Source: Gemmatimonadota bacterium (GTDB taxonomy: Bacteria; Gemmatimonadota; Gemmatimonadetes; Palauibacterales; Palauibacteraceae). From it: DNA of 45,692 nucleotides. Both the position numbers and the translations under genes were made by a program. The number at the start of each line of letters is the position of its first letter. The first letter of the stretch is position 1. The notes under the pieces are model-generated. The model saw only the letters and a program-made list of their open reading frames with translations, did not search any database and was not told the origin of the DNA. The stretch lies in NCBI GenBank assembly GCA_046758745.1, contig JBHIAV010000020.1, forward strand, positions 1 to 45,692, in the 5' to 3' direction. Below, piece after piece: positions 2,163-26,851 of the stretch.

Positions 2163-2225
2163 GTAGAGGGCGGAGCTGGGGGCCGCGCCTCGCGGTCGCC
2201 GCGCATGCGGAAGGGGGTCGCGCCC

Positions 2226-3008: not shown

Positions 3009-3055
3009 GGATCGGCTCGCCAGGGTCGGCCGGAGGCGCCGTCACGACCGCCCTC

Positions 3056-5339: not shown

Positions 5340-5404
5340 TTGCCCTCGCTCCTCACCCGTCTCGCTCCTCCTCCGCCGGGGCGGACTGGGCCATCCGTGC
5401 TCGC

Positions 5405-7242: not shown

Positions 7243-7244
7243 GC

Positions 7245-7340
7245 TCAGCCGAGTCCCTGCGGGACGCCGGGCACGACGCCGATAGGCTGGTCGTCGACCG
7301 TCGGGGAACTGGCGTCCGTGGCTGTTGATGACGCTGTCAT
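7245..7340 (-). CDS. putative 31-aa small ORF upstream of fhcD
   Basis: ATG at 7340 preceded by TAGGA; MTASSTATDASSPTVDDQPIGVVPGVPQGLG; stop ends 2 nt before the fhcD ATG. No recognisable homology. Confidence 0.25.
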   Translation of the reverse strand: MTASSTATDASSPTVDDQPIGVVPGVPQGLG

Positions 7341-7392
7341 GGAGGTCCTACCAGCCAATCTGGAACACGTGAGAGTGGTGCCGCGCGCGCGA

Positions 7393-7442
7393 TCGGGGTA
7401 AGCTCAGCCGCGCGCCGCCGGGGTGAGCTCAACCTCGCGCCG
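7393..7442. repeat. 25-bp imperfect tandem duplication of the fwdC 3' end
   Basis: TCGGGGTAAGCTCAGCCGCGCGCCG (7393-7417) versus CCGGGGTGAGCTCAACCTCGCGCCG (7418-7442), 21/25 identical. Confidence 0.8.
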
Positions 7443-8259: not shown

Positions 8260-8284
8260 GAACGCCTCTGCGCTCTGGGGCGCC

Positions 8285-9982
8285 TCAGACCCCGTGCTCG
8301 TCGGCTTCGGACGGTACGGCACCGGCCGCTTGATGCGCCGTCGGGATGATCTGGCCGTGCGGCACATAGCGGGCGTCCACCGGATAATTCGCGAAACGGA
8401 TCGTGTAGAACTCCTCGAAGAACGGGCCGATCACTCGCTCGATCTCGGGGTCATAATCGGGAGCAACTTGGAACACTCGTCCCTGGTGATCCGCGCGGAA
8501 CTCGTGGTCATCGATGATGAGCTCCCCGTCCTTGATCACATAACGGGGCGTGGAGAACATCTTTTCCTTGTCCTCGTCCTCCTCGTAGATCGTGATGTCG
8601 GCGTCCGCCCCGACCCCTAGGTGGCCCTTATCCGTGAGCCCCAGGAGGCGCGCCGGCCCCGCGCGGGTGATGATCGCGATCTCGTAGAGCGAGTACTCGC
8701 GCTCTTGGCAGTCGCGAAGCCCGCTGTTCTCGAGCGCTTTCTGGTTCACCGTGGCCATTTGCTGCTTGCGGTACTCGCGATCCATGAGCAGCCGTATGAG
8801 CGCCGGATACGTCATGAACGAACCGCCATTCGGATGATCGGTGGAGAACACCATGCGCCAGGGGTCCTCCGAGAGCAGGAACAGCTCGAGTCCGATGGCC
8901 CACTGCAGCGCGTTGGTGTACACGCGATCCTGGTAGGTGAACGGGACGATGCCGCAGCCGCTCTCGTTCTCGGTATCGGCGCTCACCCATTTGCCGCCAC
9001 CGAAACGGCGCAGCATGTATGCGAGCGGGGCATCCGCTGTCATGCTCATGGACCGCCCGAACATCACGGCGCCCACGTCCGCGCTGATGTTGGGGTGCGT
9101 GTTGACGAAATCGGCGATATCTCGCGCCCGTGACGTCGGGTTCTCCCCACTCTTCCCGGCGATGGAGCCGTAGCTGTGGAACTGGATGTGCGTGATGTGC
9201 GCCCGCCGCCCCTCCGCGATCCGCATCGTCTCGAGCGTCGTCTCGAAGTTCCCGGTGTGGCCCAGGTTGTTGCAGTGGATGTGCACCGGGTGCGGAAGCC
9301 CCAGGTCGTTCGCAGCTTCGATGAACGCGCCGATCACCTTGCGCGGAGTGAGGTCGAAGGATCCGATCTTCTCATCGAGCCGGGTAATGTTTGCGTTCCT
9401 CTGCCCCTTCCAGAGTTCATCGGCCCCGGGATTCACCAGCTTGGGGGCGTATGCCTTGGTCGCACTCAGCCACCAGGCCAGCGCCTGCTGGAACTCCTCG
9501 CCCCGCCCCTCCTCCAGCATTCGGTAGAGCAGCAGGTTGTTGCCGACCAGCACGAAGAATCCCTTGTCGATGACCGGCGTGTCGTGCAGTTCCTCCAGCG
9601 TGTGGCGCGCGCCGAGCGGCGTCACGGCGGCTTCCATAGCCGTGGTGTAGCCGAGCGCCGCGTACCGATAGCCGGTAGCGAACGTGGACGGAACGGAGCC
9701 GCCCGTGCCCGAGCGGGTGAGTCGGGTGCGCTGATGGACGTCGTGCCGGTGGTCCTCCGGCTGTACCTTCCGAGCGAGGTTGACCTTGGGGCCGGCGATG
9801 TGACAGTGGATGTCGATGCCTCCCGGCATCACCACCATTCCGCTCGCCTCGATCTTCTTCGCCTCCGGGGGGACGCTGGGCACAATCCTGCCGTCCTGGA
9901 CGCACACGTCCCGCACCTCGGCGTCGACGCCGTTCGCCGGGTCGTACACCCTGCCGTCGACGATGCGCAGCGACGAACCCAC
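8285..9982 (-). CDS. fwdA: formylmethanofuran dehydrogenase subunit A (amidohydrolase)
   Basis: DIHCHIAG, KLVNPG, HPVHIHCNNLG, HITHIQFHSYG, STDHPNGG metal ligands. GTG after GAGGAGG. Confidence 0.95.
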   Translation of the reverse strand: MGSSLRIVDGRVYDPANGVDAEVRDVCVQDGRIVPSVPPEAKKIEASGMVVMPGGIDIHCHIAGPKVNLARKVQPEDHRHDVHQRTRLTRSGTGGSVPSTFATGYRYAALGYTTAMEAAVTPLGARHTLEELHDTPVIDKGFFVLVGNNLLLYRMLEEGRGEEFQQALAWWLSATKAYAPKLVNPGADELWKGQRNANITRLDEKIGSFDLTPRKVIGAFIEAANDLGLPHPVHIHCNNLGHTGNFETTLETMRIAEGRRAHITHIQFHSYGSIAGKSGENPTSRARDIADFVNTHPNISADVGAVMFGRSMSMTADAPLAYMLRRFGGGKWVSADTENESGCGIVPFTYQDRVYTNALQWAIGLELFLLSEDPWRMVFSTDHPNGGSFMTYPALIRLLMDREYRKQQMATVNQKALENSGLRDCQEREYSLYEIAIITRAGPARLLGLTDKGHLGVGADADITIYEEDEDKEKMFSTPRYVIKDGELIIDDHEFRADHQGRVFQVAPDYDPEIERVIGPFFEEFYTIRFANYPVDARYVPHGQIIPTAHQAAGAVPSEADEHGV

Positions 9983-10007
9983 GCAGCCTCCTCTCGGCGT
10001 GCGGGCC

Positions 10008-11357
10008 CTACGCGACCGAGGCGACGAGCGGTGTGCCCACAGGGAGGCGGTTACCTCCGAGCAGCTCGCGCACGCGATGGCGGATGGCGGTCAGGATCTG
10101 CTCGTCGCTCGGGTAAGGCGAATCGAAGGCCGGGCGCAGCGTGATCGGGACGTCGTCCATGCGGTACACCGTGCCCGCGACGTTGATGCCGTACGTGGCC
10201 GTCGTGAATGCCACCCGCGCCAGCTGGCTCGTAAGCGTGAGCTTGGGATCCAGGCAGATGACCGGGATACGCCGGAGGTGCTCGATGGCCGCCTTTGGAA
10301 AGTTGGAGGCGGGATCGCTCGCGACGATCAGAGCCGCATCGGCTTCGCGACGGGCGAGCAGGTCCACCGTGGTGAACTCGCCGGGATTGAAGCGAGGGTA
10401 CCCTCGGCTGAAGTTGACGCCGAACGGGAACCCCGTCTGCCACGACAGAACGTTGTCCGCGCCCGTCACATTGCCATGACCGCGGACCGGCTTCGCCACG
10501 AAGCGCGTGAACTCGTTAAGATCAGTGGCGAGTGCCAGCAGCGCTCCGGAATTGAAGTGCCGGCCGCGGGTCATCGTGAGTCCCATCCCGAACAGGAAGA
10601 CGCCGTAGCAGCAGCTCTTCATCCGCGAGACGAGGTCCTCTAGGACGGCGAGGGAGACGCCGGTGCGCTGCTCGATGGAGGGATCGACCTCGCGTCCTTT
10701 GACCAGGGCCCTCAACGCCCACAGGACTTCGAAGTCACTGCGCGGCTTCACCTGGATGAAGATGTCCGCTACCCGCGCACTGGGAGTTCGCCGCACGTCC
10801 ACCAGGACGACGGTGCGGTCTTTTCGACCGTTGGGGACGTACATGCCCTTCGGGGTCACCGCGTACCTCGTGAAGAGCCGCGGGTGCGACTCCGCCGGGT
10901 TACCGCCCCAGAACACGATGAGGTCCGCCCGGTTCTTTATCTCGCCGAGCGAGGCGGTGCTTTCGCCCACGCCCTGGAACGCGATTCCCGATGGGCCGTG
11001 GCACACCGAGGTCGTGGTGTCCACCGTGCCGCCGATCATGTCCGCGAGCGACACCGCCACGCGCTGAGCCTCACAGGTCGTGTCGGACAGCCCGTAGATC
11101 ACGGGGAAACGCGCCCGGGCGAGAATCTGTGCGGCCTCTTCGACGCCTTCATCGGTGCTCGCCTCGCGACCCTCGATCAGGGCGAACGGACGCTCCTCGA
11201 GGCCGTGCTGCTTGAACCACGCCCTGCCCAGGATACAGGCGTTCGCCGCCTTCGTGATGCGCTTCTGCTCCAGATCCACGGTGAGGTCCATGTCGTCGCA
11301 AACGCAGCCGCAGAATGTGCAGGTAGCCCCCTCTACAACCCTGATGCCGTCGCTCAT
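10008..11357 (-). CDS. fwdB: formylmethanofuran dehydrogenase subunit B (Mo/W-pterin, [4Fe-4S])
   Basis: CTFCGCVCDD plus a distal ANAC Cys, TSVCHGPS, IKNRADLIVFWG, RGHGNVTG, YRMDDVP. ATG after GAGGAG. Confidence 0.93.
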   Translation of the reverse strand: MSDGIRVVEGATCTFCGCVCDDMDLTVDLEQKRITKAANACILGRAWFKQHGLEERPFALIEGREASTDEGVEEAAQILARARFPVIYGLSDTTCEAQRVAVSLADMIGGTVDTTTSVCHGPSGIAFQGVGESTASLGEIKNRADLIVFWGGNPAESHPRLFTRYAVTPKGMYVPNGRKDRTVVLVDVRRTPSARVADIFIQVKPRSDFEVLWALRALVKGREVDPSIEQRTGVSLAVLEDLVSRMKSCCYGVFLFGMGLTMTRGRHFNSGALLALATDLNEFTRFVAKPVRGHGNVTGADNVLSWQTGFPFGVNFSRGYPRFNPGEFTTVDLLARREADAALIVASDPASNFPKAAIEHLRRIPVICLDPKLTLTSQLARVAFTTATYGINVAGTVYRMDDVPITLRPAFDSPYPSDEQILTAIRHRVRELLGGNRLPVGTPLVASVA

Positions 11358-11361
11358 CGGA

Positions 11362-11730
11362 CTAATCTCCTCGATTCTCCGCGCTCTCCCGGACCGGCTC
11401 GATTTCAACGTCCAGGTTCTTGGAGATCGGCATGCCGCTGCCGGCCGTATCGCTCGCCATCAGCTCGCTCGACAGGGGGCCGTAGGCCATGAACAGTATC
11501 CCCGGTGGCAGGTCCTTCGTCTCGCGGCCCTTGCACCGCACGACGACCTCGCCCACCGACGTGCGCAGCCGCACCTTGCTGTCATCCTTGAGTCCAAGGC
11601 GCGCCATGTCCTCCACGTTCATCTCCACGGTCGAGGAGATGTCAATGTACGTCGGCTCCGTCTTACCTGCGCACAGAGAGGTCCCCTGCTTGCTCGAGCG
11701 CCCGCCGATCAGCGTCATGATCTCAGCCAT
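11362..11730 (-). CDS. fwdD: formylmethanofuran dehydrogenase subunit D (molybdopterin dinucleotide-binding domain)
   Basis: LIGGRSSKQG, EMNVEDMARLG, GILFMAYGP, DTAGSGMP; directly upstream of fwdB. Alternative start 11766. Confidence 0.88.
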   Translation of the reverse strand: MAEIMTLIGGRSSKQGTSLCAGKTEPTYIDISSTVEMNVEDMARLGLKDDSKVRLRTSVGEVVVRCKGRETKDLPPGILFMAYGPLSSELMASDTAGSGMPISKNLDVEIEPVRESAENRGD

Positions 11731-11812
11731 GGGAAACCTGGCGGACCTCAAGAGAGGATCGCTCATTCCCGGCGATCCAGCCTGGATTCCCGGGTTTGCC
11801 GCTGCCGTCTCC

Positions 11813-11821
11813 AGTATAGCA
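11813..11821 (-). promoter_or_regulatory. candidate extended -10 promoter (TGnTATACT) upstream of fwdD
   Basis: Minus strand reads TGCTATACT in the fnr-fwdD gap; no clear -35. Confidence 0.45.
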
Positions 11822-11832
11822 CATCTGGCACC

Positions 11833-13221
11833 TCATTGAGAGCGACCGTCCAGCAGTCTCAGCATCTCCTCGACGCGGGTGAACTTCTCACGCGGCTTGC
11901 CCTTGGCTGCTCCGCGTCTGATCTCCGCCTGGTCGATTACAAGCCAGTCGCTGTAGCTGACCACCCGAGGCCCATCCCCTGCGCGCAGGACGTTCAGGCC
12001 GTCCGCCCCGGGCTTCGCGCCGCTGTCCAGAGCCGGCAGATCGGCGAGCAGGGATTTCACGGTCGCGACGCTGTCCGCGCGGTTCGTACCGATGAGCCCC
12101 GTCGGACCACGCTTGATCCATCCCGTGGCGTACAGCCCCGGAATCACGGCGCCGCTCTCGTCGACGATCCGTCCGTCACGGGTGGGGAAGATGCCCCGGC
12201 GCACATCGAACGGAACACCCGGGAGCGGGATGCCCTGATACCCGATGCTGCGGAATAGTAGCCCACAGGCCATTCCCACGCGTTCCCCTGTCCCTACCGC
12301 CTTCTGCTGGAAGGGCTGGCCCTCGAGTCGGTTCCGTTCGAAGATGACCTCCTCCAGCCGCCCTTCGCCCTTGAGCTGCACAGGACTCAGCAGGAAGCGC
12401 AGGATGATCCGCCGACGGCTTCCGCGGCCGGGCCGGGAGGTGAAGCCGTGGAGGATCTCCACGTTCTTCCGGGCGACGGACCCGCGCTTGTCGGCGATTT
12501 CGGAGAGACTCTCGGGATTGAGCTCGAGCTCCGCCGGATCCACCGCCGGATCGCAGTCCGCCAGCTCGCCCAGCTCCCGGAGCTCCTTGCTGGTGAACTT
12601 CGCCTGCGCGGGACCGCGGCGCCCGACAACATGGATCTCCCGGATCCGGCTCGTGGCGAGGCAGTCGATGGCATGTTCGCAGATATCGGTCTGCTTCAGC
12701 TCGTCCACTGTCTTGGCGAGAATCCGGCACACGTCGACGGCGACGTTCCCCTGGCCGATGATGACCGCCACCTCATGGCTCAGATCGAACCGCCGATCGT
12801 GGTAATCCGGATGCCCGTTGTACCAGCCGACGAATTCGGTCGCGGTGTGGCTTCCCGGCAGATCCTCCCCGGGAATCCCCAACCGGCGGTCGCTCTCCGC
12901 CCCGCAGGCGAACACCACCGCATGATACGCCTCCCGCAGCTCCTGGACGGCGACATCGCGGCCCACCGTGACGTTGCCCAGAAACCTGAACTCGGGCTCG
13001 CGCGCGATCCTCTCGTAGATCCGGATCGGCCCCTTGAGCTTGGGATGGTCGGGGGCGACCCCGTAGCGAACGAGGCCGAAGGGGGCCGGAAGCCGTTCAA
13101 GCATGTCGACGCGGACCACGTGCTCGGACTTGATGAGGGCTTCTGCGGCGTAAAACCCACTGGGGCCGGCGCCGACGATCGCCACCTTGAGGGGATTCTG
13201 CTCCGAGCCGAGGACGCTCAT
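11833..13221 (-). CDS. ferredoxin--NADP+ reductase (FprA/adrenodoxin reductase type)
   Basis: VAIVGAGPSGFYAA, PFGLVRYGVAPDH, FVGWYNGHP, IGQGNVAVDV, GRRGPAQAKFT, GWIKRGPTGLIGTN, KPREK. ATG after GGAG. Confidence 0.92.
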   Translation of the reverse strand: MSVLGSEQNPLKVAIVGAGPSGFYAAEALIKSEHVVRVDMLERLPAPFGLVRYGVAPDHPKLKGPIRIYERIAREPEFRFLGNVTVGRDVAVQELREAYHAVVFACGAESDRRLGIPGEDLPGSHTATEFVGWYNGHPDYHDRRFDLSHEVAVIIGQGNVAVDVCRILAKTVDELKQTDICEHAIDCLATSRIREIHVVGRRGPAQAKFTSKELRELGELADCDPAVDPAELELNPESLSEIADKRGSVARKNVEILHGFTSRPGRGSRRRIILRFLLSPVQLKGEGRLEEVIFERNRLEGQPFQQKAVGTGERVGMACGLLFRSIGYQGIPLPGVPFDVRRGIFPTRDGRIVDESGAVIPGLYATGWIKRGPTGLIGTNRADSVATVKSLLADLPALDSGAKPGADGLNVLRAGDGPRVVSYSDWLVIDQAEIRRGAAKGKPREKFTRVEEMLRLLDGRSQ

Positions 13222-13689
13222 TGGTGCTCCGTTCGGGTCAGGCGCAGGCATCATCACGGGAACACGACGATTGCCAGGATGTGTCGTCCAACCGGCCTAG
13301 CAACGGCCACGCGGGAGAGCGTCACGAGAGAACTGACCGGTTGCGCGGCCAAACTGTGTCGTCGTCGAGGGGTCCCGATGCCTTCACGTTACATTTCTCC
13401 CTGTGGGCCGCGACCGCTCAGAATCGGGCCTCCGTCGCGGCGCCGCAAATCGGACAGCGGGGACCCGTCATGCAAGCGAGATCGCGGTTGGTAGCGACCG
13501 ACCTGACGGGCAGGACGGATCTCGTCCTGGGCGCCACAGGACCGCCGGACGCGGCTTCGGGCAGGGGCCTGAGAATCGGCGCTCCCCGACGAGAACGTGA
13601 ACCGCGGCGCGGCACATTCGAGGGGATACCGCGAAAGGAAGAGCCAGCGTGCCCGGGCTGCCGGGGCGCCTTCATCGCCGCGCGGCGGT

Positions 13690-15142: not shown

Positions 15143-15997
15143 TCAGAGCGACCGCGCCAGCTCGAAGATCGTCTCGGCGTCCAGGACCAGATCGTTCCGC
15201 TCGAAGAGCCGCGCGATGCACGCCTTGTGGAGCTTCAGCTTGAAGCCGCCGACGCCGAACGCGCCGAACGTAGTCGCCCCATCGCGCGACGCCCCGTCGT
15301 CAGTCGCCTCCACTCCCTCGATCCCGAGGGGAGGCACCGCGTTCAGGTCGCCGAGCACCGACGGTCCCTCGCTCGCCCACGCGGAGCGCTTGAGAAGGAC
15401 AACGCCCGGCGGGCCGCAGGAGAGGACGATATCGGCTCCCTCGAGATCCTCGGCCGACTCCAGAGGGTAGTCCACGGCCCGGGGCGTCACCTCGACCCCG
15501 AAGCGCCCCGAGACGACGCGGCGCGCGCGCTCGGCCGTCGCGGTGCTCCGCGAGGTGATGGCGACCTCGGCTCCCGCCGTGGCGAAGAGCGCCGCGGCCC
15601 GCTTGCCGACCGGTCCGGTGCCGCCGAGGAGGAGGACCCGCTTCCCTTCCACGCCGCCGGCCGCCCGCTCCAGCTTTACCACGGCGGCCACCGCCGTCGT
15701 GTTCGAGCCGTTCGAGTCGAGCAGGATGGCTACCCGGAACGGGCCGAAGAACGCCTCCCGGGCCTTCTCGAGCAGGGTCTCCCCGGCCTCGAGGTCGGCG
15801 CCGCCGATGAAGATGGCGGTATTCCGGAGCTCCTTCGGGCCGCGCGTGAAGATGGCCCCATGCACGAGGCCGCGGACGTCGCCGGAATCCACCCCACCGT
15901 AGGCGAGCACCTCATCCGCGCCGCCGTCGAACGCGACGATGCTGTCGAAGGCACTCGGGTGTCGGTCGCTGTCGAGCTGGAGGAGGAGCTTCTTCAT
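15143..15997 (-). CDS. mtdA: NAD(P)-dependent methylene-H4MPT dehydrogenase (MtdA/MtdC type)
   Basis: KKLLLQLD, AFDGGAD, IFTRGPK, FFGPFRV, LDSNGSNTTA, GTGPVG, DLNAVPPLGI, KLKLHKACIARLF. Confidence 0.9.
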   Translation of the reverse strand: MKKLLLQLDSDRHPSAFDSIVAFDGGADEVLAYGGVDSGDVRGLVHGAIFTRGPKELRNTAIFIGGADLEAGETLLEKAREAFFGPFRVAILLDSNGSNTTAVAAVVKLERAAGGVEGKRVLLLGGTGPVGKRAAALFATAGAEVAITSRSTATAERARRVVSGRFGVEVTPRAVDYPLESAEDLEGADIVLSCGPPGVVLLKRSAWASEGPSVLGDLNAVPPLGIEGVEATDDGASRDGATTFGAFGVGGFKLKLHKACIARLFERNDLVLDAETIFELARSL

Positions 15998-16051: not shown

Positions 16052-16573
16052 CTAGACGCGCACGGTCTCCTCTGCGCCCGCGGCGAACGGGTGACGGGCC
16101 GCCTCCTTCTTCGACAGCACCGTGTCGATCGTGGGAAGGCTCTTGATCGCCCGCTCGATCGACTCCTTCGTCGCCTGGTAGTTGAAGTCGAAGATCTTCT
16201 TGTCGTCCTCGGCCTCCCAGTGGATGAACACGCCGACCAGGATGCACAGGTCATCCACCTGATCCTTGGGGATGATCCCCTCCTCGACGGAATCCACTAC
16301 GGCGCGCGCCACCGCCGCCTGGGCGGGCCCGAACATCTGTACCGCCTGCTTGGCCCCTTTGATCGTCACCTTGTTGAAGAGCAGGGTATCGGGCTTGGCG
16401 GGGAGGTTCGGCTCGACGACCGCCAGGAGAGCGTTGTGGCCGGAGCGCTGGGAGCAGAGGGTGTTGGTGAACGCTTGGCCGGCCGGTCCGTTCTTGGAAC
16501 CGATGACGAGATCGACGTGAGCGACCTCGTTACCGTCGCCGACAAGCGACTCGCCGATCATGAGTGATCGCAT
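16052..16573 (-). CDS. fae: formaldehyde-activating enzyme
   Basis: [45 protein letters not shown] after GGAGG. Confidence 0.95.
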
Positions 16574-16901
16574 GGAACGCCTCCTGTGCCAAGGAGTGAC
16601 TCTGGCGCAAACGACGGATCCCGGGGCCAGCCCGGGTAACGTCGTTGGGCTCGCGGAAGAAGGTAGTTCGGTAGAGAAGCCTCCCCCAGAAGCAACGTTG
16701 AAACGACGTTCAGGAAGTGACCCGTAGAATAGGCATCGAGCACCGGGAGGTCAAGATGCGAGCACGGTTGAATGTTCACCACCCGTTCCGTATTTCAGAC
16801 GCGTCTCGCAGCGCCGGCATCCTTCGCTCGGAACGATGCCGGAACCGCCGCTACTGAGGAGCGACTTACCCGTCCGCGGGTCCGGTTCGTACGGAGGCGA
16901 C

Positions 16902-17594
16902 GTGGCAGCTACGGGAAGTGATGGCTCCCGGGAGATCCGAGCGTCCCGCAGCCTCATGGAGGTCACGGAGTGGGAGCTCCAGCGCATCCTGCTGGACATC
17001 CACGACGGCCCGGTGCAGCACATGTACGCCGCCCTTTCCCAGCTCGACCTGTTGCGGCGCTCGCTCGGAGGGGCGGGGAAGGTATCGCCCGAGGCGGACC
17101 AGCTGATCGAGCGAATCCGACGCCTCCTCGAGCGGGGACTGGGCGAGGTTCGGAGCTTCATCGGAGCCTTCCGGCCGCCCGAGTTCGAGTCCCGCGATCT
17201 CGTCGCCCTGCTCGAGGGACTCGTTCTCCAGCACGAGGCCGACACCGATATGGATGTGACCCTCGAGGTGGATGGACGACTTCCCGAGGTGACGCTGGCC
17301 GTCAAGATCGCACTCTACCGGGTGCTACAGGAGGCGCTGTCGAACGCCTATCGGCACGGGGGCGCGGACCGGGTGGCTGCTCGGCTCGTCCCCGTGCGGA
17401 GAGGGGATGAGGCCGGCATCGAGATGCGGATCGTCGATAACGGCGCGGGCTTCGATCCCGCAGCGGTTCGCCCCGAGCAGCGTTTCGGGCTGAAGGGGAT
17501 GCGTGACCGCATGGAGATGATCGGAGGGAGCTTCAGCCTGAAGAGCTCGCCGGGGCGGGGGACGGTCATCGTCCTGGGGGCGCCAGCGGCGTGA
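16902..17594 (+). CDS. cytoplasmic histidine kinase (HisKA_3 + HATPase), no sensor domain
   Basis: H-box LDIHDGPVQ, YRVLQEALSNAYRH, DNGAGFD, FGLKGMRDR. GTG after GGAGG; alternative ATG 16836. Confidence 0.88.
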   Translation: MAATGSDGSREIRASRSLMEVTEWELQRILLDIHDGPVQHMYAALSQLDLLRRSLGGAGKVSPEADQLIERIRRLLERGLGEVRSFIGAFRPPEFESRDLVALLEGLVLQHEADTDMDVTLEVDGRLPEVTLAVKIALYRVLQEALSNAYRHGGADRVAARLVPVRRGDEAGIEMRIVDNGAGFDPAAVRPEQRFGLKGMRDRMEMIGGSFSLKSSPGRGTVIVLGAPAA

Positions 17595-18220
17595 GCCAGC
17601 GGATTCGCGTCGTCCTGGCTGACGATCACGAGCTCGTTCTGGAGGGGCTGCGCTCTCTCCTCGATGCGGAGTCGGACATCGAGGTGGTGGCGACCGCGAC
17701 GACTGGCCAAGCGCTCATGGAGGCGGTTCGCGCCCACCGGCCGGACGTTGCCGTCGTGGACCTGGTGCTGGGGGAGCCGGATGGACTGGCCTGCCTGGAG
17801 CGCATCCGATCTGAGGGACATCCGGTGCGCGTGCTCGTGCTCACCGCCTACAGTGACGGGGAGTCGATGCGGGCGGCCCTGGAGGGCGGGGCCGATGGCT
17901 ACGCCCTCAAGACCGAGCCGCCGCAACAGACGGTCACGTCCATACGGCAGGTCCAAGCGGGGCAGCTCGTCTTCCCGTTGGCTGCGAAGCGGTGGCTGCT
18001 GGGTGGGTCCGCGCCGGCGGGAAGCGGCCAGCTCACCGATCGTGAGCGAGAGGTGCTCGCCCTGGTGGCCGAAGGCCTCACGAACGCGCAGATCGCGCGG
18101 CGGCTGAGAGTGAGCGGGAACACGGTGAAGTTCCACCTCCAGAACCTCTACATGAAGCTGGGGGTCAGCAATCGGACCGAGGCCGCCGCGCGCTATCTGA
18201 AAGAGCGGTCGCCGGACTGA
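17591..18220 (+). CDS. NarL/FixJ-family response regulator (REC + LuxR HTH)
   Basis: LADDHELV, DVAVVDL, GYALK, LTDREREVLALVAEGLTNAQIA...TVKFHL; start overlaps the kinase stop. Confidence 0.95.
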   Translation: MSQRIRVVLADDHELVLEGLRSLLDAESDIEVVATATTGQALMEAVRAHRPDVAVVDLVLGEPDGLACLERIRSEGHPVRVLVLTAYSDGESMRAALEGGADGYALKTEPPQQTVTSIRQVQAGQLVFPLAAKRWLLGGSAPAGSGQLTDREREVLALVAEGLTNAQIARRLRVSGNTVKFHLQNLYMKLGVSNRTEAAARYLKERSPD

Positions 18221-18320: not shown

Positions 18321-18418
18321 GCGGTGGTAGGGGGGCCGACCGCGTGCAACCTTCTCCATGTGAGCCTACCCGGCGCCTTTCGGCCGGGGCCAACTGTCGT
18401 CCGGACGGGGAGAACCCG

Positions 18419-19144
18419 ATGCAGATCTATCTCGACACGGCCAACCTCGAGGAGATTCGTGAGGCGGCCGGCTGGGGAGTGCTGAGCGGGGTGACCACGA
18501 ATCCCACGCTGCTGGCGCGCGAGAGCGGCATGGACTTCGAGGAGACGATCCGGCAGATCGCCTCGCTGGTGGACGGCCCGATCAGCGCCGAGGCGGTCCG
18601 CGGAGACGCCGACGGAATGGTGGAGGAGGGGCGGCGGTACGCCGCCTGGCATCCCAACGTGATCATCAAGGTGCCCTGCACGGTCGAGGGCTTGAAGGCG
18701 GTATACCGTCTCAAGGCGGAGGGAATACGCACCAACGTCACCCTCTGCTTCAACGCCAACCAGGCGCTCCTCGCGGCCCGAGCCGGGGCGTTCGTGATCT
18801 CGCCCTTCGTCGGCCGACTGGATGACATCTCGCAGCCCGGGATGGATCTCATCCGCGATATCGTCGCACTCTTCGACCGGGACCCCGAGATCGAGACGCG
18901 AGTCCTGGCGGCTTCGATCCGCCATCCGCGCCACATCGTGGAAGCTGCGCTGGCGGGCGCTCACATCGCGACCTGCCCCTTCAAGGTACTCCGGCAGAGC
19001 ATGAAGCACCCGCTCACGGACATCGGAATCGAGCGGTTCCTGGCGGACTGGCGGCGCCGCGAGGAAAAAGCGACCCACCCAGAGGCCACGGAGGCTGGGA
19101 GGCCGGCGGAGGCGGGTCGGCAGCCGTCCCTCCGGCCCGTGTGA
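18419..19144 (+). CDS. tal: transaldolase (small TalC/FSA family)
   Basis: [22 protein letters not shown] (Schiff-base Lys), [19 protein letters not shown]. Glu in ISAE and Phe in SPF indicate transaldolase rather than FSA. Confidence 0.93.
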
Positions 19145-19206: not shown

Positions 19207-19260
19207 TGAACGCACAGTCAGACATGAACGCACAGTCAGACATGAACGCACCGTCAGAGA
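19207..19260 (+). repeat. 3 x 18-bp tandem repeat abutting the RuBisCO RBS
   Basis: TGAACGCACAGTCAGACA x2 then TGAACGCACCGTCAGAGA, followed by GGAG and the ATG at 19273. Confidence 0.92.
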
Positions 19261-19272: not shown

Positions 19273-20661
19273 ATGCCGACGACGAAAGAGGTCTTGGGAG
19301 GGACAACGGCCTCCCCGGTGCCGGAAGCCAGCGAGAGCCCGGGCTTCGAAGCAGGGGTGGCGCCCTACCAGAAGAACTACTGGGCTCCGGAGTACCGGCC
19401 AAGAGACACGGACCTGCTCTGCGCGTTCCGCATCACCCCGAAGCCGGGGGTCGACATCATCGAGGCGGCCGCCGCAGTGGCCGCGGAATCTTCCACCGGG
19501 ACGTGGACCGAGGTGTGGTCGAGCGCCCTCACGGACCTCGATCGCTACCGCGCGCTCGTCTACCGGATCGACGACGACATCGCGTACATCGCCTACCCGT
19601 TGGATCTCTTCGAGGAGGGTTCCATCGTCAACATCATGAGCTCGATCGTCGGCAACGTCTTCGGCTTCAAGGCCGTCACCGCCCTGCGTCTGGAGGATAT
19701 GCGGATCCCGGTCGCGCTGGTGAAGACCTTCCCGGGACCGCCCACCGGGATCGAGCTGGAGCGGCAGCGGCTCAAGAAGTTCGGCCGCCCGCTACTCGGG
19801 GGCACGATCAAGCCGAAGCTCGGCCTGAGCCCCGCGGGATACGCCCGGGTCGTCTACGACTGCCTCAAAGGCGGGCTGGACACCACCAAGGACGACGAGA
19901 ACATGAACTCCCAGCCGTTCAGCCGCTGGCGGGACCGCTTCCTGTTCGTGATGGAGGCGGTGAACAAGGCGGAGGCCGAGACCGGCGAGACGAAGGGTCA
20001 CTGGCTGAACGTCACCGCCCCCACCACGGAGGAGGCGCTCGAGCGGGCGGATTACGCGGCCGAACTCGGCTCGCGCTACGTGATGATCGATTACCTGACC
20101 GCCGGCTTCGCTGCCCACCAGAGCGTGCGCAATCACATCGAGAAGAAGGGGCTGATGCTCCACGTGCATCGGGCGATGCACGCCGTCATCGACCGGCAGA
20201 AGAACCACGGCATCGCCTTCCGGGTGCTCGCGAAGTGGCTCCGGCTGGCCGGCGGCGATCACCTGCACACGGGGACGGTGGTCGGCAAGCTGGAAGGCGA
20301 TAGGGCCGTGACCATCGCCATCGCGGACATGCTGAGGAAGGATTGGGTCCCCGCCGACCCGGCGACGGGCGCCTACTTCGAGCAGGAGTGGGCAGGGCTC
20401 AAAACCGTCTTTCCGTGCGCCTCCGGTGGCATCCATGTGCATCACATCCCGGCCCTGTACGAGATCTACGGGAACGATGCCTTCTGGCTCTTCGGCGGCG
20501 GGACGCACGGACACCCCGGCGGCAGCCTGGCGGGAGCGCGGGCCAACAGGGTCGCCACAGAGGCGATCGCCCAGGGAATTCCCCTGGAGAGGGCGGCCCG
20601 CGACTGCCCGGAGCTCCGCGACGCGATGGAGCTCTGGAAGGACATCCGCTTCGAAGACTGA
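19273..20661 (+). CDS. rbcL: RuBisCO large subunit, Form I-like without small subunit (probable Form I-alpha)
   Basis: [63 protein letters not shown] all intact; the next gene is prk, with no rbcS. Confidence 0.96.
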
Positions 20662-20672
20662 GGAGATCGACC

Positions 20673-21656
20673 ATGCCGTTCCGAGACCAGAATCCGATCC
20701 TGCTCGGCATCGTCGGCGACTCCGGTTCGGGCAAATCGACGCTCTCCGCAGGGATCGAGATGATCCTCGGCAAGGAAAGAGTGACCGATATCTGCCTGGA
20801 CGACTACCACCGCTACGATCGTGCCGGGCGCAAGGCGCATGGAATCACCGCGCTGAATCCCGAGTGCAACCACCTGGAGCTGATGCGGCAGCACCTCCTC
20901 CTCCTCCGCGCAGGAGAGACGATCTTCAAGCCGGTGTATGATCACTCCGATGGGACCTTCGGTCCCCCGGAGTTCGTGACGCCGCGACAGCTCGTGGTCG
21001 TGCATGGGCTTTTGGGGCTGTACACCCAGCCCCTCAAGTCCGCCTTTCACGTCTCGGTCTTTCTCGACCCCGATCCCGACCTCCGGGTGCAGTGGAAGAT
21101 CAGCCGGGATACGGCGAAGCGCGGCTACACTCCGGAGCAGGTGCGGCAACAGCTCGAGCATCGGCGTCACGATTCCGAGACGTTCATCCTGCCGCAGCGG
21201 GGGCGGGCGGACCTCGTCGTGCGCTTCTACCCGCAGCCCGGCTACTGGCAGACGCGCGACAACACCAGGCTGAACGTCCGCATCCTGCAGCGCCACGACG
21301 TGGGGGGACCCGACCTCGAGTCGCTGCTGGTCGAGGCGGCTCGCATCGCCTGCCACGGGAAAAGGGGACGCCCGTGTCTGTACCTCGAGGAATATTCGAC
21401 GGGTGGAGTCGAGGAGGCCCTCTACATAGACGGTTCGATTCCAGACGAGCTGGCCGCGGAAGTGGAAGACACCCTGTGGGATCAGATGCCGCGGGTCCGA
21501 CACCTGCGCCCGGAGGAGATCGGCGTGTTCGATGAGGGCGGGGTGATCCGCCGGTCCAACAGCCTCGCGCTCACCCAGCTGCTCGTCACGTACTACCTCG
21601 TGCGAGCCGCCGAAGTGGCGCGGGAGGAGCTGGCGGCCTCGGCGGCCGCCTCGTGA
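20673..21656 (+). CDS. prk: phosphoribulokinase (cyanobacterial/plant/archaeal-like class)
   Basis: [13 protein letters not shown]-loop, [43 protein letters not shown] after GAGGAG. Confidence 0.9.
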
Positions 21657-22742
21657 CGCGGCCGGCGGCGAAGGGGAGCGGGATGCGATCGCCGCCGCCC
21701 CCGCTCGACGAGCTGTCGATCAACGTGATCCGCGGCCTGGCCATGGATGCGGTAGAGGCCGCGCGCTCCGGGCACCCCGGGATGCCGATGGGAGCGGCCA
21801 CCATGGCGTACGTCCTGTGGGACCGGCATCTGCGGCACGATCCGACCGACCCTGTCTGGCCCGACCGGGACCGCTTCGTTCTCTCGGCTGGACACGGCTC
21901 CATGCTCCTGTACGCCCTGCTGCACCTCACCGGCTATGAGTTGCCGCTCGAGGAGCTGAGGGAGTTTCGGCAATGGGGGAGCCGGACGCCCGGCCACCCG
22001 GAGTACGGACATACCCCCGGCGTCGAGACGACGACCGGTCCCCTCGGCCAGGGCTTCGGAAACGCCGTCGGGATGGCGATCGCCGAACGCTGCCTGGCTG
22101 CCCGCTTCAACCGGCCCGGGCACGGGATCGTGGACCACCGGACGTACGTGATCGCGAGCGATGGGGATCTCATGGAGGGTGTCCAGTCCGAAGCCGCCTC
22201 GCTGGCCGGTCACCTGGGGCTGGGTCGCCTCATCGTCCTGTACGACGCCAATCGGATCAGCATCGATGGCTCGACCGACCTCGCCTTTACCGAGGACGTG
22301 GGAGCCCGGTTCGTCGGCTACGGCTGGCACGTGCAGGAGATCGACGGACACGATGCGGCGGCGGTGGACGAGGCCCTCACGGCGGCCCGGGGGGAGGTCG
22401 GGCGCCCCTCTCTCATCATAGCCAGGACCCACATCGGCTACGGGAGCCCCAACAAGCAGGACTCGGCGGACGCGCACGGCGCACCGCTCGGATCGGAGGA
22501 GCTGCGCCTGGTCAAGGAGCGGCTCGGAATCCCTCCGGAGGAGAGCTTCTGGATCCCGGAAGAGGTCCGCACCCACATGCGCGCGGCGCTCGAGCGAGGC
22601 TGCGTGTGGCGGCGAGAGTGGGAGGATCGGTTGCGGGCCTACGCCGAGGCCTTCCCCGGGGAGCACACGCGCTTCCTGGAGGCCCTCCGAGGCGACCTGC
22701 CCGCCGGGTGGGGGGAATCGCTGCCCATGTTCGAAGGCGGGA
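21653..22742 (+). pseudogene. tkt: transketolase, truncated after the N-terminal TPP-binding domain
   Basis: [65 protein letters not shown]. Similarity ends at LPMFEGG (~22742); the frame then runs through unrelated sequence to a stop at 23146. Confidence 0.85.
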
Positions 22743-22745
22743 CCC

Positions 22746-22985
22746 GCTGTCGGAGCATGGCGGGTGCCTGTCGGGGATACGGGCCGTCTCCTGTCGGGGT
22801 GATGGCAGCCGCCTTTCGGGGACACGGGCCGTCGCCTTTACGCCACAGGGCTCCCTGGTTCGTATCGGGGGGACTCCCCATCTTGGAGAACCTCCATGTT
22901 TCGGGCAGGAGCCCCGGCCCTGTTCGGGCAGGGATCGCGGTCGTCGGGCACCCCTTTCTAGGTCGGGCAGGAACGCCCGTCGGGA
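22746..22985. repeat. degenerate repeat tract (TCGGG cores at ~17-23 bp spacing, ~45-bp duplicated unit)
   Basis: GCCTGTCGGGGATACGGGCCGTCTCCT (22766-22792) versus GCCTTTCGGGGACACGGGCCGTCGCCT (22811-22837); TCGGGCAGG at 22901, 22924, 22963. Confidence 0.6.
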
Positions 22986-22994
22986 GCGGGTCGC

Positions 22995-23294
22995 GTGGGA
23001 TACACCCGCAGGGACATCCAGGACTCGGTGAACCGGGCCGGCGACGCCCACATGCAGGCGCTCATCGATCATCACGAGTCGGCCTATCCGGAGAGCCCTC
23101 CCACGCCGGGAAACATCTGCCGCGCCGAAGCCGAGCGCCTGAATGAGCTGGGCTTCGGGAACGCCGGCGACGACCTCAGACTGATCGAGACGAGGGTCGA
23201 ACGGGCCGGGAACGAAGTTCGGATCACGCACGTTTTCGAGTACGTACCACTCGGGGTGCGCCTATTGACCGAGCCGTTCACGGGCTACGCCTGA
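22995..23294 (+). CDS. hypothetical protein (99 aa)
   Basis: GTG after GGGAG; globular, balanced composition unlike the Arg/Pro-rich shadow ORFs. Confidence 0.65.
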
Positions 23295-23982
23295 GCCGGG
23301 CCGTTCTGCCGGGCCCGACCCCTCGTGAACCCGGAGCGCACCGGCGGCGCGCGGTGGAACGGCGGGAGGCTTGCGCTCAGGCGGACACCAACATATCGTG
23401 ATGACCCCCCAGAGGTTCCGGGGCTGCCGGCAGGGGTGGCCGGTCCGCGAGACCGGCGCACGACCGGGGGCTCACGGAGAGTTCTTCGGCGGTGACGCAT
23501 GGCTGAGGGTGTCTCGTCAGGGAGCCGGGCGTGGGGAGTGGCGGTAGGGTGGCGGAGCGAGGGCAAGCCCGGTCCGTTCGGATGCCGCGGCAGTGGGCCG
23601 GGGCAGCGGTGGCGCGGGTACTGGTGGTCCTCCTGTGGCCGGCTTGCCGACGCTCTCGCTTCCTCCCGTTCTCGACTCCCCTCGATTCTTGCCACTCTCG
23701 TTACTCGCCGCCAGGACTCTCCCGAAGATCCACATTCCGGCTTCAGACTAGCGGTCTGCACTTCCCTCTCATCGAGGAGGCTCGAGATGGCTCACGCGCA
23801 GGTCCGGCGCGCTGTCGTTGGGAGCGCCACGTTGGTGGGCCCATGGGTCGCGCCGGCGGGCCGGGGAGGAATCGACCGCGGTGGACCCGGAGAGCGGGGT
23901 CCACCGCCGTAAGCGGAAGCCTCATTCGGAGCCGTCTCTCCGAGACGGAGTCTCGCCCATCCCAAGCAGGCAGGAGTTCTTT

Positions 23983-25773
23983 ATGAGTCGACTCAATCAT
24001 CGCGCCTGGTCGTGGGCGGTCGCTGCGAGCCTGTTGCTGCTCGTGGCCGCGCCCGCGGCGGCCCAGGACCTGATCCAGATGTCGAAGGATCCGGGTCAGT
24101 GGGTGCTACCGGGCAAGGACTACGCGTTGACCCGGTACGTCGAGCTGGGCCAGATCAACAAGTCGAACGTCGGGAACCTGAAGGTTGCCTGGACGTTTTC
24201 GACAGGCACGTTGAACGGGCTCGAGGGCGCTCCTCTGGTCATCGGCAACACGATGTATTTCGTGACCTCGTTCCCGAACATCGTGTACGCCCTGGACCTC
24301 GCCAAGGAGGGTGCCCCGATCAAGTGGCTGTACAGGCCCGATCAGGACCCCACGGTGCCCGGGGTCGCGTGCTGCGATCTGGTGAACCGCGGCGTGGCGT
24401 ACGCCGACGGCAAGATCTTCTTCACTCAGCTCGACGCGACTGTGGTGGCGCTCGATGCGAACACCGGCAAAGTGGTCTGGTCGGTGAAGCAGGGCGATCC
24501 GAAGAAGGGGATGACCATCACCGGCGCTCCGCTCGTGATCAAGGACAAGGTGATCACCGGGATCAGCGGCGGTGAGTTCGGCGTTCGCGGCTTCGTGACC
24601 GCCAACGACATCAAGACCGGCAAGCAGATCTGGCGGAAGTACAGCGCCGGCCCGGACGAGGACGTCGGGATCGGCCCGGACTTCAAACCCTTCTACAAGG
24701 ACCACCAGGGCAAGGACCTCGGGGTCACCACGTGGAAGGGCGACGAGTGGACCCGCGGAGGCGGCACGACGTGGGGCTGGTACTCCTACGATCCGGAGCT
24801 CGACCTCTTCTACTACAACACCGGTAACCCCGGCAGCTGGAATCCGGATCAGCGCCCCGGCGACAACAAGTGGTCGATGACGATGTGGGCGCGTGATCCC
24901 GACGACGGCATGGCCAAGTGGGCATATCAGATGACCCCGCACGATGCGTGGGACTACGACGGGGTCAACGAGAGCATCCTGGTCGATCAGATGATCGGTG
25001 GGAAGCTGCGGAAGACCTCGGTCCACTTCGACCGTAACGGTTTCGCGTACACGGTGGACCGGACCACCGGCGAGGTCATCGTGGCCGAGCCGTACGGCGC
25101 GGTGAACTGGGCGAAGGCGATCGATAAGAAGACAGGGCGTCCCATCGAAGATCCATCCAAGCGGACGAAGCAGGGCGAGAACACCACGAACATCTGCCCG
25201 TCCGCCATGGGCTTCAAGGACCAGCAGCCGGCCTCCTACTCGCCGCGCACGAAGCTGTTCTACGTGCCGAGCAACAACCTCTGCATGGACTATGAAGGGG
25301 TGGAGGTCAGCTACACCGCGGGCCTGCCGTACGTCGGCGCAATCGTGAAGACGTACCCGGGTCCGGGTGGGCATCGTGGCGCGCTGGTTGCCTGGGATGC
25401 CACCGAGGGCAAGAAGGTCTGGGAGGTCAAGGAGAACTTCTCCGCCTGGGGCGGCACGCTCGTGACGTCCACCGACCTGGTGTTCTACGGCACCATGGAC
25501 GGTTGGTTCAAGGCGGTCGACGCGACCAGCGGAAACGTGCTGTGGAAGTTCAAGACCGGTGCCGGGATCATCGGTGCTCCGATGACGTACATCGGCCCGG
25601 ACGGCAAGCAGTACGTGGCCATTCTGGCGGGCGTCGGTGGCTGGGCAGGCGCCACGGTCTCCCTTGATCTATCGCTGGATGACCCGACGGCCGCTCTCGG
25701 AGCGGTGAACGCGTTCGACGATCTCGGGCAGCACGTCGCCAAGAGCGGCATTCTGTTCGTGTTCTCGCTGTAA
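23983..25773 (+). CDS. xoxF: lanthanide-dependent PQQ methanol dehydrogenase
   Basis: Signal peptide; VACCDLVNRG disulfide, GISGGEFGVRG, TGNPG, HDAWDYDGVNE (D-x-D lanthanide motif), HFDRNG; followed by xoxJ and xoxG; no mxaI. Confidence 0.93.
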   Translation: MSRLNHRAWSWAVAASLLLLVAAPAAAQDLIQMSKDPGQWVLPGKDYALTRYVELGQINKSNVGNLKVAWTFSTGTLNGLEGAPLVIGNTMYFVTSFPNIVYALDLAKEGAPIKWLYRPDQDPTVPGVACCDLVNRGVAYADGKIFFTQLDATVVALDANTGKVVWSVKQGDPKKGMTITGAPLVIKDKVITGISGGEFGVRGFVTANDIKTGKQIWRKYSAGPDEDVGIGPDFKPFYKDHQGKDLGVTTWKGDEWTRGGGTTWGWYSYDPELDLFYYNTGNPGSWNPDQRPGDNKWSMTMWARDPDDGMAKWAYQMTPHDAWDYDGVNESILVDQMIGGKLRKTSVHFDRNGFAYTVDRTTGEVIVAEPYGAVNWAKAIDKKTGRPIEDPSKRTKQGENTTNICPSAMGFKDQQPASYSPRTKLFYVPSNNLCMDYEGVEVSYTAGLPYVGAIVKTYPGPGGHRGALVAWDATEGKKVWEVKENFSAWGGTLVTSTDLVFYGTMDGWFKAVDATSGNVLWKFKTGAGIIGAPMTYIGPDGKQYVAILAGVGGWAGATVSLDLSLDDPTAALGAVNAFDDLGQHVAKSGILFVFSL

Positions 25774-25890: not shown

Positions 25891-25957
25891 CTGGGCCAGG
25901 AGGATCGATGCCGCGGCTGTGGGCGTAACCGTGCGAGCCAAGGTACCGGGGGCCGGA

Positions 25958-26851
25958 ATGGGACGACGCATCGGAAAGAGAAGAGGCGCGGCGGCGCTCG
26001 CCTGCGTCCTGCTGCTCGGCGGCGGCTCCGGTTCAGCGGCGGCACAGCCGGCGAGCAGCGGAGTGGACGGGGAGAAAGAGGCGTTCCGCGTCTGCGCCGA
26101 TCCGAACAATCTGCCCTTCTCGAACCGGCGGGAGGAAGGGTTCGAGAACAAGCTCGCCGAGATGATCGCGGCGGAGCTGGGAACCAGCGTTCAATACACC
26201 TGGTGGCCCCAGCGTCGCGGCTTCATCCGAAACACCCTTCGAGAGAAGCTGTGCGACGTGGTCATGGGCGTTCCGAGCAGCTACGAGCTCGTCCTGACGA
26301 CCAAGCCCTATTATCGCTCCACGTACGTGTTCCTCTACCGGAAGGATGCGGGGCTGGAACTCCGCACGCTCGACGATCCCGTGCTGCGAGAGCTCCGGAT
26401 CGGCGTGCACATCATCGGAGATGACTACGCCAACAGTCCGCCTGCTCACGCGCTCAGCAACCGGAACATCGTGCAGAACGTCGTCGGCTACAGCGTGTAC
26501 GGGGACTACAACGAGCCGAACCCGCCGGCCAGGATCGTGGATGCGGTGGAGTCGGGCGACGTGGATGTGGCGATCGTGTGGGGACCGATCGCCGGCTACT
26601 TCTCGAAGGGACAGCCGCTGCCGCTCGAGATCGTGCCGGTGTCGCCGCAGATCGACCTGCCGTTCCTCCCCTTCGTGTTCGACGTGTCGATGGGAGTGCG
26701 CCGCGAAGACGAGGAGCTCAGGGACGGTCTGGAGCGGATTCTCGACAAGAAAGCGGCCGAGATCCGGGCGCTGCTGGAGGAGTACGGTGTACCGATCGTT
26801 GGGATCCACCGACGGTCCGCAGCTTCCCCCCGGGAGGGAGAGAGCCCGTGA
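25958..26851 (+). CDS. xoxJ: MxaJ/XoxJ periplasmic binding protein
   Basis: RVCADPNNLPFSN, GFENK, QRRGFIRNTL, CDVVMG, PYYRSTYVF, DVAIVWGPIAGY, SMGVR. Confidence 0.92.
   Translation: MGRRIGKRRGAAALACVLLLGGGSGSAAAQPASSGVDGEKEAFRVCADPNNLPFSNRREEGFENKLAEMIAAELGTSVQYTWWPQRRGFIRNTLREKLCDVVMGVPSSYELVLTTKPYYRSTYVFLYRKDAGLELRTLDDPVLRELRIGVHIIGDDYANSPPAHALSNRNIVQNVVGYSVYGDYNEPNPPARIVDAVESGDVDVAIVWGPIAGYFSKGQPLPLEIVPVSPQIDLPFLPFVFDVSMGVRREDEELRDGLERILDKKAAEIRALLEEYGVPIVGIHRRSAASPREGESP

Follow-up and report, generated by a model that had tools for sequence, protein, structure and literature searches.

A small-subunit-free form I'-type RuBisCO encoded in a methanol-oxidation island of a Gemmatimonadota bacterium

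The 45,692-nucleotide contig JBHIAV010000020.1 of a Gemmatimonadota genome (assembly GCA_046758745.1), hereafter the window, carries at 19273..20661 on the forward strand an rbcL gene for a RuBisCO large subunit of 462 residues, RbcL, which is of form I' type according to Pfam, NCBIfam, alignment and tree, and for which no small-subunit partner was found. The gene lies in a Calvin-cycle module set between genes of lanthanide-type methanol oxidation, and we consider it likely that this small-subunit-free enzyme drives Calvin-cycle assimilation in an aerobic, methylotrophic Gemmatimonadota bacterium of hydrothermal-vent origin. The kind of enzyme is itself already known; what is new, compared with the literature available, is its occurrence in this phylum, its being physically built into an island for lanthanide-type methylotrophy, and its setting in an aerobically respiring host. 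In those parts of the published accounts that were available, single-subunit relatives of form I are tied to Chloroflexi, with a few Planctomycetota, and to low-oxygen or anoxic habitats. As form I' hosts a 2026 preprint lists Chloroflexi and Planctomycetota only, a survey of Gemmatimonadota records only RuBisCO types IC/ID, II and IV, and the RuBisCO papers that we searched make no mention of 'Gemmatimonad'.

Results

The large subunit and its relatives

The rbcL frame is free of stops over its 462 codons, with the stop codon at 20659-20661, and its product contains both RuBisCO domains at full length (Pfam PF02788, 3.6e-44; PF00016, 3.2e-121). It is the single RuBisCO large-subunit gene revealed by a genome-wide search, and its third-position G+C of 0.89, the top value in the region, is host-like. 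The original prediction claimed a full catalytic set with form I-type motifs, and indeed GNVFGFK, HRAMH and GKLEG are present in the translation, together with YRID and the 13-residue stretch named there, while a 19-row alignment with form I, I' and III sequences shows TKDDE, KPK, HRAMH, H..GKLEG, SGGIH and FGGGTHGHP to be kept. We take the carbamylated lysine of TKDDE, together with KPK, HRAMH, H..GKLEG, SGGIH and GGG, to be the RuBisCO active-site residues. Judged by its sequence the product is a bona fide, catalytically complete RuBisCO large subunit; it would presumably adopt an L8 quaternary state, and its expression and kinetics are likewise presumed. A low specificity, compensated by CO2 generated inside the cell, may be envisaged.

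RbcL lacks the three length features borne by all four small-subunit-bearing form I rows of the 19-row alignment, namely a 7-8 residue insert after YRIE/D, a 12-residue 'ARNEGRD...' insert, and a tail past ..KFEF. The original prediction had reported just these absences (no form I loop after YRID, no RNEGRDL insertion, a short C-terminal tail), and the alignment bears out all three. According to the part of the literature that was available, forms I and I'' carry a C-terminal extension or insert and form I' does not; in our alignment RbcL is without it. A form III enzyme of the pentose bisphosphate pathway was rejected, as RbcL scores 448 bits with the form III model TIGR03326, under its cut-off of 497, no AMP phosphorylase (TIGR03327) was found and prk is adjacent. 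With NF003252, the NCBI model of the form I large subunit, it scores 658 bits. Canonical form I (IA-IF, L8S8) was likewise rejected, there being no adjacent rbcS and the large-subunit inserts being missing.

The nearest metagenomic protein is 86% identical to RbcL, and the proteins of two Gemmatimonadota metagenome-assembled genomes (MAGs) 77-80%. Identity falls to 61-74% with named form I' loci of Chloroflexota, Planctomycetota, Bacillota and KSB1-related bacteria, and to 55-63% with small-subunit-bearing form I, and the next full-length cluster representative is at most 45% identical. Solved structures are 68-75% identical to RbcL. The best matches in the PDB are five 457-residue entries named 'RubisCO large subunit' (771-775 bits), followed by 8U66 (698 bits), 6URA (679 bits) and form I enzymes (about 630 bits or less); sequences near-identical to the 457-residue entries are labelled 'synthetic construct' in UniRef. 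We take these entries (7QSV/7QSX/7QSZ) to be the ancestral L8 reconstructions of Schulz et al. 2022, and 6URA to be the form I' RuBisCO structure of Banda et al. 2020. The 8U66-like sequences are probably the published form I''; an Armatimonadota MAG protein, P0084, matches 8U66 with 937 bits across 455 residues.

The C-terminal region was inspected in the query and the 120 hits listed. Among these the short form, 'EA[IV]A.G.T[LI]E.AA', occurs in 89 rows, of which 74 are form I'-type and 15 belong to the clade of the query (13 besides the query itself and P0002, a duplicate of it), while the long form occurs in 13 (four plant form I sequences, P0064, P0084, P0099 and six synthetic constructs); the pattern matched nothing in the remaining 19 rows, for which the last 60 residues only were shown. 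The 12-residue insert is borne by form I, the 8U66-like sequences and P0064; the query clade has the short loop in common with form I'. The short loop had originally been described as form III-like. It is indeed short, but since all 74 inspected form I'-type sequences have the same state it points to form I' rather than to form I-alpha or form III. Despite giving the highest PDB scores and falling into the same I/I'/I'' clade, the 8U66-like sequences (P0084) and the ancestral constructs differ from RbcL in carrying the 12-residue insert.

Absence of a small-subunit gene

The genome, of which the window is contig C20, comprises 3.08 Mb in 130 contigs and is 87.4% complete with 0.08% contamination. 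A genome-wide search for rbcS, suggested as a check in the original prediction, gave no match with the PF00101 hidden Markov model at E<=10, nor by tblastn with form IA and form IC RbcS queries at E<=0.01. No cbbX was found in the genome by tblastn (E<=0.01), and CbbQ_C and RbcX were not found there either, in agreement with the earlier claim that rbcS, cbbX, cbbQ and rbcX are all missing. The RbcS queries are sensitive, revealing rbcS directly downstream of rbcL in five of five form I control loci, and they reveal it in none of 46 form I'-type loci. PF00101 likewise has no match in the genomes of two Gemmatimonadota loci (L042 and L002) and one Chloroflexi locus (L008), the control genome (L037) being positive. 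As the genome is 87.4% complete and in 130 contigs, absence of rbcS is strongly suggested rather than proven.

In one Planctomycetaceae MAG (G448), which has a form I'-type rbcL-prk locus (L012), a different contig (C508) bears an rbcS. Possibly this genome encodes a canonical form I enzyme in addition, or else its bin is a mixture.

Phylogenetic position

A quick tree of 76 rows comprised the query, 14 near hits, two Gemmatimonadota loci, 20 named form I'-type loci, 15 further hits, three long-loop sequences, nine form I sequences and 12 distant cluster representatives, leaving out six synthetic constructs, plant sequences that are fusion artefacts, and the loci L022, L043 and L046-L048, which are frameshifted. 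For a careful tree (59 rows x 460 columns, LG+C20+F+G4) six very long outgroup rows and 11 redundant rows were dropped; its support is given below as ultrafast bootstrap/approximate likelihood-ratio test (UFBoot/aLRT). In this tree forms I, I' and I''-like stand together at 100/99, and the small-subunit-bearing form I sequences form a crown, also at 100/99, from which the query is excluded. The form I' group of 27 rows has support of 94/89 and the query clade of 15 rows 93/97. The 8U66-like sequences group with P0064 plus form I at 79/78, and the query clade joins this assemblage at 50/0 on a zero-length branch. P0130, an unlabelled full-length cluster representative only 45% identical to the query, falls outside the I/I'/I'' clade. 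Maximum-likelihood analysis, which the original prediction had proposed, thus agrees with it in placing RbcL outside the form I crown and departs from it in that the position, inside I/I'/I'' at 100/99, is not that of form I-alpha.

By the approximately unbiased (AU) test, placing the query clade with all of form I' costs nothing (log-likelihood difference 0.00, p 0.47, equal to the free tree), while placement with the form I' core only (18.4, p 0.093) or with small-subunit-bearing form I only (10.2, p 0.12) costs more. On these sequence comparisons the query clade is real, distinct and outside the form I crown, and none of the three placements at the I/I'/I'' node is rejected. Since the 12-residue insert is present in the 8U66-like sequences, P0064 and form I and not in the outgroups, parsimony speaks against an immediate sister relation between the query clade and form I. 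A 2026 preprint, in the part that was available, likewise describes the I/I'/I'' node, and two 'form I' subclades' with it, as poorly resolved; the query clade may already be present, unnamed, in published trees.

The named members of the query clade are Gemmatimonadota MAGs only. One of these proteins, MBI4514075.1 of a Gemmatimonadetes MAG, bears the NCBI name 'form I large subunit'. Within the form I' group P0028 is placed most basally in our tree, and a cultured bacterium, Caldinitratiruptor microaerophilus, has a protein (cluster member WP_264843211.1) that shares at least 90% identity with it; a 2026 culture-collection survey reports that form I' was not found in culturable species.

The Calvin-cycle module and its conservation

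The module opens with genes for a sensor histidine kinase (16836..17594, +; Pfam HisKA_3 and HATPase_c) and a NarL/LuxR-type response regulator (17591..18220, +; Response_reg and GerE). This adjacent two-component system would regulate the operon, the response regulator being the candidate that controls it. They are followed by a short transaldolase/fructose-6-phosphate aldolase of the TalC/FSA type (tal, 18344..19144, +; TIGR00875, 287 bits, cut-off 246) and then by rbcL. Between the last two lie three tandem copies of the 18-nt unit TGAACGCACAGTCAGACA (19207..19260, +; TRF score 97; three matches against 0.01 expected), which end 12 nt ahead of the rbcL ATG, immediately upstream of the ribosome-binding site. 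The repeat is not present in the other loci fetched and is unique to this genome among them; possibly it is an operator, or regulator-binding site, or an element of the 5' leader.

The phosphoribulokinase gene, prk (20673..21656, +; 327 residues; NF005655, 345 bits, cut-off 236), is, as originally reported, separated from rbcL by 11 nt; this spacer after the rbcL stop, GGAGATCGACC, contains GGAG. Its product is 55-58% identical to those of L042 and L002. There follows a truncated transketolase gene, tkt (21653..22765, +), which by Pfam (Transketolase_N only) and tblastn retains only the thiamine-diphosphate domain; homology is lost around residue 425-440 (full length about 750), beyond which the frame stays open, without homology, to 23146. 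Since contig C7 carries a full-length tkt together with tal (69177-72860), the operon copy would be dispensable. The right edge of the module is formed by about 1 kb without a recognisable gene (22766..23817), in which no tkt homology was detected in any frame, no Rfam match, and no Pfam match for an open reading frame (ORF) at 22962-23294. The tkt remnant and this gene-free interval look like the scar of a module insertion. Rfam finds nothing in the window at gathering thresholds, and promoter and terminator counts from a scan of 16500-24000 do not exceed those of shuffled sequence.

Much of this organisation recurs in the 46 form I'-type loci. In 42 of them prk follows rbcL, the contig breaking off in the other four. 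Upstream of rbcL, 22 have genes for a histidine kinase and a NarL-type regulator in the same orientation, and 16 have tkt behind prk. Compared with their upstream homologues in these loci the window kinase is 39-47% and the response regulator 53-64% identical. The short transaldolase directly precedes rbcL in three loci (L006, L008 and L045; 63-72% identity), and in the Chloroflexi locus L008 the order, kinase-regulator-tal-rbcL-prk-tkt, is identical to that of the window (60% identity for the regulator, 46% for the kinase, 63% for the transaldolase). Form I loci have instead the order rbcL-rbcS-cbbX (rbcS in 5/5, cbbX in 4/5). This shared gene order indicates that the window carries a Calvin-cycle module typical of form I' loci, and by the same sequence comparisons kinase-regulator-tal-rbcL-prk-tkt appears to be a portable unit.

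A histidine kinase and NarL-type regulator, 33-39% identical to those of the window, are also found near three Actinomycetota form I loci of the order rbcL-rbcS-cbbX (L038, L039 and L052). Two-component control of cbb genes may thus extend more widely than form I' loci.

The methanol-oxidation island

The module fills exactly the gap between fae and xoxF. Downstream, xoxF (23818..25773, +; start codon uncertain) encodes a lanthanide-type methanol dehydrogenase dependent on pyrroloquinoline quinone (PQQ; TIGR03075, 703 bits), whose best solved relatives are 4mae (769 bits) and 6oc5 (727 bits), with the DYD motif aligned ('wdydgvne'). We take 4mae to be the Methylacidiphilum methanol dehydrogenase and the aspartate of DYD to be the marker of the XoxF type. 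It is followed by a gene for a XoxJ/MoxJ-like periplasmic binding protein (25919..26851, +; TIGR03871, 314 bits, cut-off 212). On the other side, on the reverse strand, are fae for formaldehyde-activating enzyme (16052..16573; PF08714, 3.5e-71, match at 16085-16558), a gene for an MtdB-like methylene-tetrahydromethanopterin (methylene-H4MPT) dehydrogenase (15143..15997; PF09176, 8e-31), and fhcD, fhcC, fhcA and an fhcB-like gene with an oxidoreductase (6343..13296; FTR/FTR_C, GXGXG, Amidohydro_3 and Molydop_binding). Beyond these, four kinds of gene (1161..5702, reverse strand; ATP-grasp, PTPS-like, CitG-like and RimK-like by Pfam) are predicted, by analogy with methylotrophs, to serve H4MPT biosynthesis. 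Both the fhc and the cofactor genes have orthologues in the island of a genome of the same family, G404.

Further downstream, at 32479-40178, are a second PQQ dehydrogenase that is PedH-like (nearest structure 6zcv, a lanthanide-type ethanol dehydrogenase) with a cupredoxin-like neighbour, and two TonB-dependent receptors conserved beside C1 genes in G404; these are candidates for lanthanide uptake and an alternative electron acceptor. Between them and xoxJ are four coding-like ORFs (28851-29504, 29918-31021, 30846-31664 and 31609-32163) with no Pfam match at E<=1e-5, of which 29918-31021 and 30846-31664 have no NCBIfam match at E<=1e-10 either.

G404 carries an orthologous island of fae, mtdB, fhcBADC, cofactor genes, two TonB receptors, a binding protein, xoxJ and xoxF (31-69% identity) in which none of the kinase, regulator, tal, rbcL, prk or tkt genes is present, and a search of five genomes of its genus revealed no RuBisCO. 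In the genome of L042 (G444) about 0.8 kb separates fae from an xoxF 84% identical to that of the window, the Calvin module being carried by a different contig. As read from these sequences, a methanol-oxidation island has received the Calvin module of the window between its fae and xoxF genes. An assembly chimera at the tkt truncation was ruled out, as Logan contigs of two sequencing runs bridge rbcL, prk, the truncated tkt and xoxF: one of 19 kb from run X1, with no differences over 18200-24789, and one of 7.8 kb from run X2 covering 19225-26200. These runs are perhaps the source samples and provide independent assembly, not an independent sample. The contigs of X2 fragment into 30-45 nt pieces at 19207-19260, as expected of the 18-nt repeat.

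Host and distribution

The best named relatives of RpoB (contig C19) are 81-91% identical and all Gemmatimonadota, including the 'marine benthic group' and Palauibacterales, and the sequencing runs containing the stretch are labelled hydrothermal vent metagenome. Within the phylum the gene is uncommon: of 400 other Gemmatimonadota genomes sampled, none has a close rbcL homologue and eight have form I-type genes at 53-63% identity, and 30 genomes of the same family yielded neither kind. Sixty other genomes of the family include two with Fae and one (G404) with XoxF. XoxF homologues are present in all three Gemmatimonadota genomes that carry the query RuBisCO clade, being 84% identical to that of the window in G444 and 51% in G445, and Fae is present in two of the three.

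Discussion

A probable Calvin cycle fed by methanol

The original prediction linked the enzyme to C1 oxidation, and this link is strengthened by the position of the operon between fae/mtdB/fhc and xoxF-xoxJ and by a formate dehydrogenase alpha subunit encoded elsewhere in the genome (741 bits). In the scheme we favour, XoxF would oxidise methanol to formaldehyde, the H4MPT route (Fae, Mtd, Fhc) would convert this to formate and formate dehydrogenase would release CO2, the electrons passing to heme-copper oxidases, of which the genome encodes four subunit I (COX1) homologues. RbcL, its gene presumably co-transcribed with prk within the Calvin module, would then act with PRK to assimilate the CO2, as in autotrophic methylotrophs, and methanol-derived CO2 would be its substrate pool. 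Pentoses would probably be regenerated by transaldolase, transketolase, class I fructose bisphosphatase (FBPase) and a DhnA-type aldolase. A class I FBPase gene is present in the genome, while glpX and class II aldolase were not found there. Hexulose-phosphate synthase, the marker of the ribulose monophosphate (RuMP) pathway, has no match above cut-off in the genome and the serine-cycle family HpcH/HpaI was not found in it, which leaves no other recognised route for methanol carbon.

Methylacidiphilum is an autotrophic methylotroph that assimilates CO2, and it, Methylomirabilis and Paracoccus combine Calvin-cycle methylotrophy and XoxF with a small-subunit-bearing form I RuBisCO. They resemble the present host in XoxF, in an H4MPT or equivalent route to CO2 and in RuBisCO with PRK; here, unlike there, the small subunit is absent and the cbb genes lie within the C1 island. 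Form I' is the closer comparison for the enzyme. Both lack the small subunit, the 12-residue 'RNEGRD..' insert, the C-terminal extension and the insert after YRIE, and both have prk directly downstream and the gene order kinase-regulator-(tal)-rbcL-prk-(tkt). However, the query falls into a separate clade (93/97), apart from the form I' group (94/89), its C-terminus (..FED) is 2-3 residues shorter, its hosts are Gemmatimonadota rather than the Chloroflexi and Planctomycetota listed in the 2026 preprint, and the host of the window encodes four heme-copper oxidases and XoxF.

Alternative readings

The original description of RbcL as form I-alpha-like, which would make it an evolutionary intermediate between form III and form I, probably dimeric, appears to us most improbable. 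It draws on the short, form III-like loop, the short C-terminus and the missing rbcS, and the available part of a 2021 preprint (West-Roberts) indeed describes form I-alpha as linked to prk, with a short loop and without a small subunit, so that the two are alike in these respects. The same source puts form I-alpha at about 48% identity to form I and outside I+I'; the criterion applied here was an identity of about 48-50% to forms I and III with a branching point outside I+I'+I''. The label does not fit RbcL, which shares 55-63% of its residues with form I and 61-74% with form I'; it also lies inside the I/I'/I'' clade, outside which the 45%-identical P0130 is placed, and its short loop is common to every form I' sequence inspected. 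Form I-alpha was rejected on these grounds of identity and position. We regard it as very unlikely, too, that RbcL is one of the ordinary form I enzymes that depend on a small subunit, its rbcS being hidden in the 12.6% of the genome left unassembled. The genome is incomplete, and rbcS does occur, on a different contig, in one planctomycete that has a form I'-type gene, but the form I crown excludes RbcL, all three length features are missing, prk stands 11 nt behind rbcL where rbcS directly follows in 5/5 form I and 0/46 form I'-type loci, and a search of two further genomes of the clade gave no rbcS. Hardly more credible is a recently transferred module in decay with its RuBisCO out of use, as might be suggested by the tkt cut after its first domain, the 1 kb of non-coding DNA behind it and the lack of a close homologue in 400 other genomes of the phylum; rbcL, prk, tal and both regulatory genes are intact with ribosome-binding sites, rbcL retains all catalytic motifs and a host-like third-position G+C, and a full-length tkt is present elsewhere.

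A functional Calvin module that is not the route of methanol carbon is unlikely, and would serve lithoautotrophy on another electron donor, a redox sink or CO2 refixation during mixotrophy. Homologous Chloroflexota modules are unlinked to xoxF, one genome (G447) being without XoxF and Fae, G445 lacks Fae, and the module has its own two-component regulator with no obvious regulator shared with methylotrophy. The sample is labelled hydrothermal vent, and sulfur and hydrogen are common electron donors at such vents. Yet NiFe hydrogenase and pmoA/amoA were not found in the genome (sulfur-oxidation genes being outside the search), the module sits exactly within the C1 island, and no RuMP or serine-cycle marker was found.

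Several observations weigh against the reading of RbcL as a form I'-type enzyme of methanol-fed Calvin-cycle assimilation. In the quick tree the query clade (17 rows, aLRT 85) stands beside P0064 plus form I (aLRT 87), and as none of the three AU placements is rejected the backbone is a trichotomy in which the query clade and form I' need not be monophyletic; rbcS might conceivably lie on DNA missing from the 87.4%-complete assembly. On the metabolic side the truncated operon tkt could mean a decaying module, the DhnA-type aldolase adjoining rpe on contig C8 scores 221 bits, under its cut-off of 277, the search for Calvin-cycle enzymes beyond RbcL and PRK covered transaldolase, transketolase, FBPase, aldolase and rpe, and the failure to find a serine cycle refers to the malyl-CoA lyase family HpcH/HpaI only. 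In G445 Fae is missing, and the link to H4MPT therefore does not hold throughout the clade, and the three Gemmatimonadota genomes are kin and not independent, which makes their shared XoxF a recurring association rather than a statistic.

Implications

How the dominant CO2-fixing enzyme of the world gained its small subunit is reconstructed mainly from those relatives of form I that do without one. To these the locus adds a well-supported clade at the node between forms I, I' and I'', and it offers a concrete physiological setting in which CO2 would be released within the cell by C1 oxidation. As RbcL is short and, judging by its gene neighbourhood, chaperone-independent, it should be an easy target for expression and kinetics. 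A bolder proposal, which we put forward tentatively and think rather doubtful, is that the Gemmatimonadota clade is no offshoot of form I' but an independent lineage, so far without a name and without a small subunit, which stands at the foot of the form I radiation, working in O2-respiring, lanthanide-dependent methylotrophs. If so, the tie of single-subunit form I relatives to anaerobic niches would be broken, and any account of how both small subunit and C-terminal insert arose would have to accommodate a fourth deep lineage.

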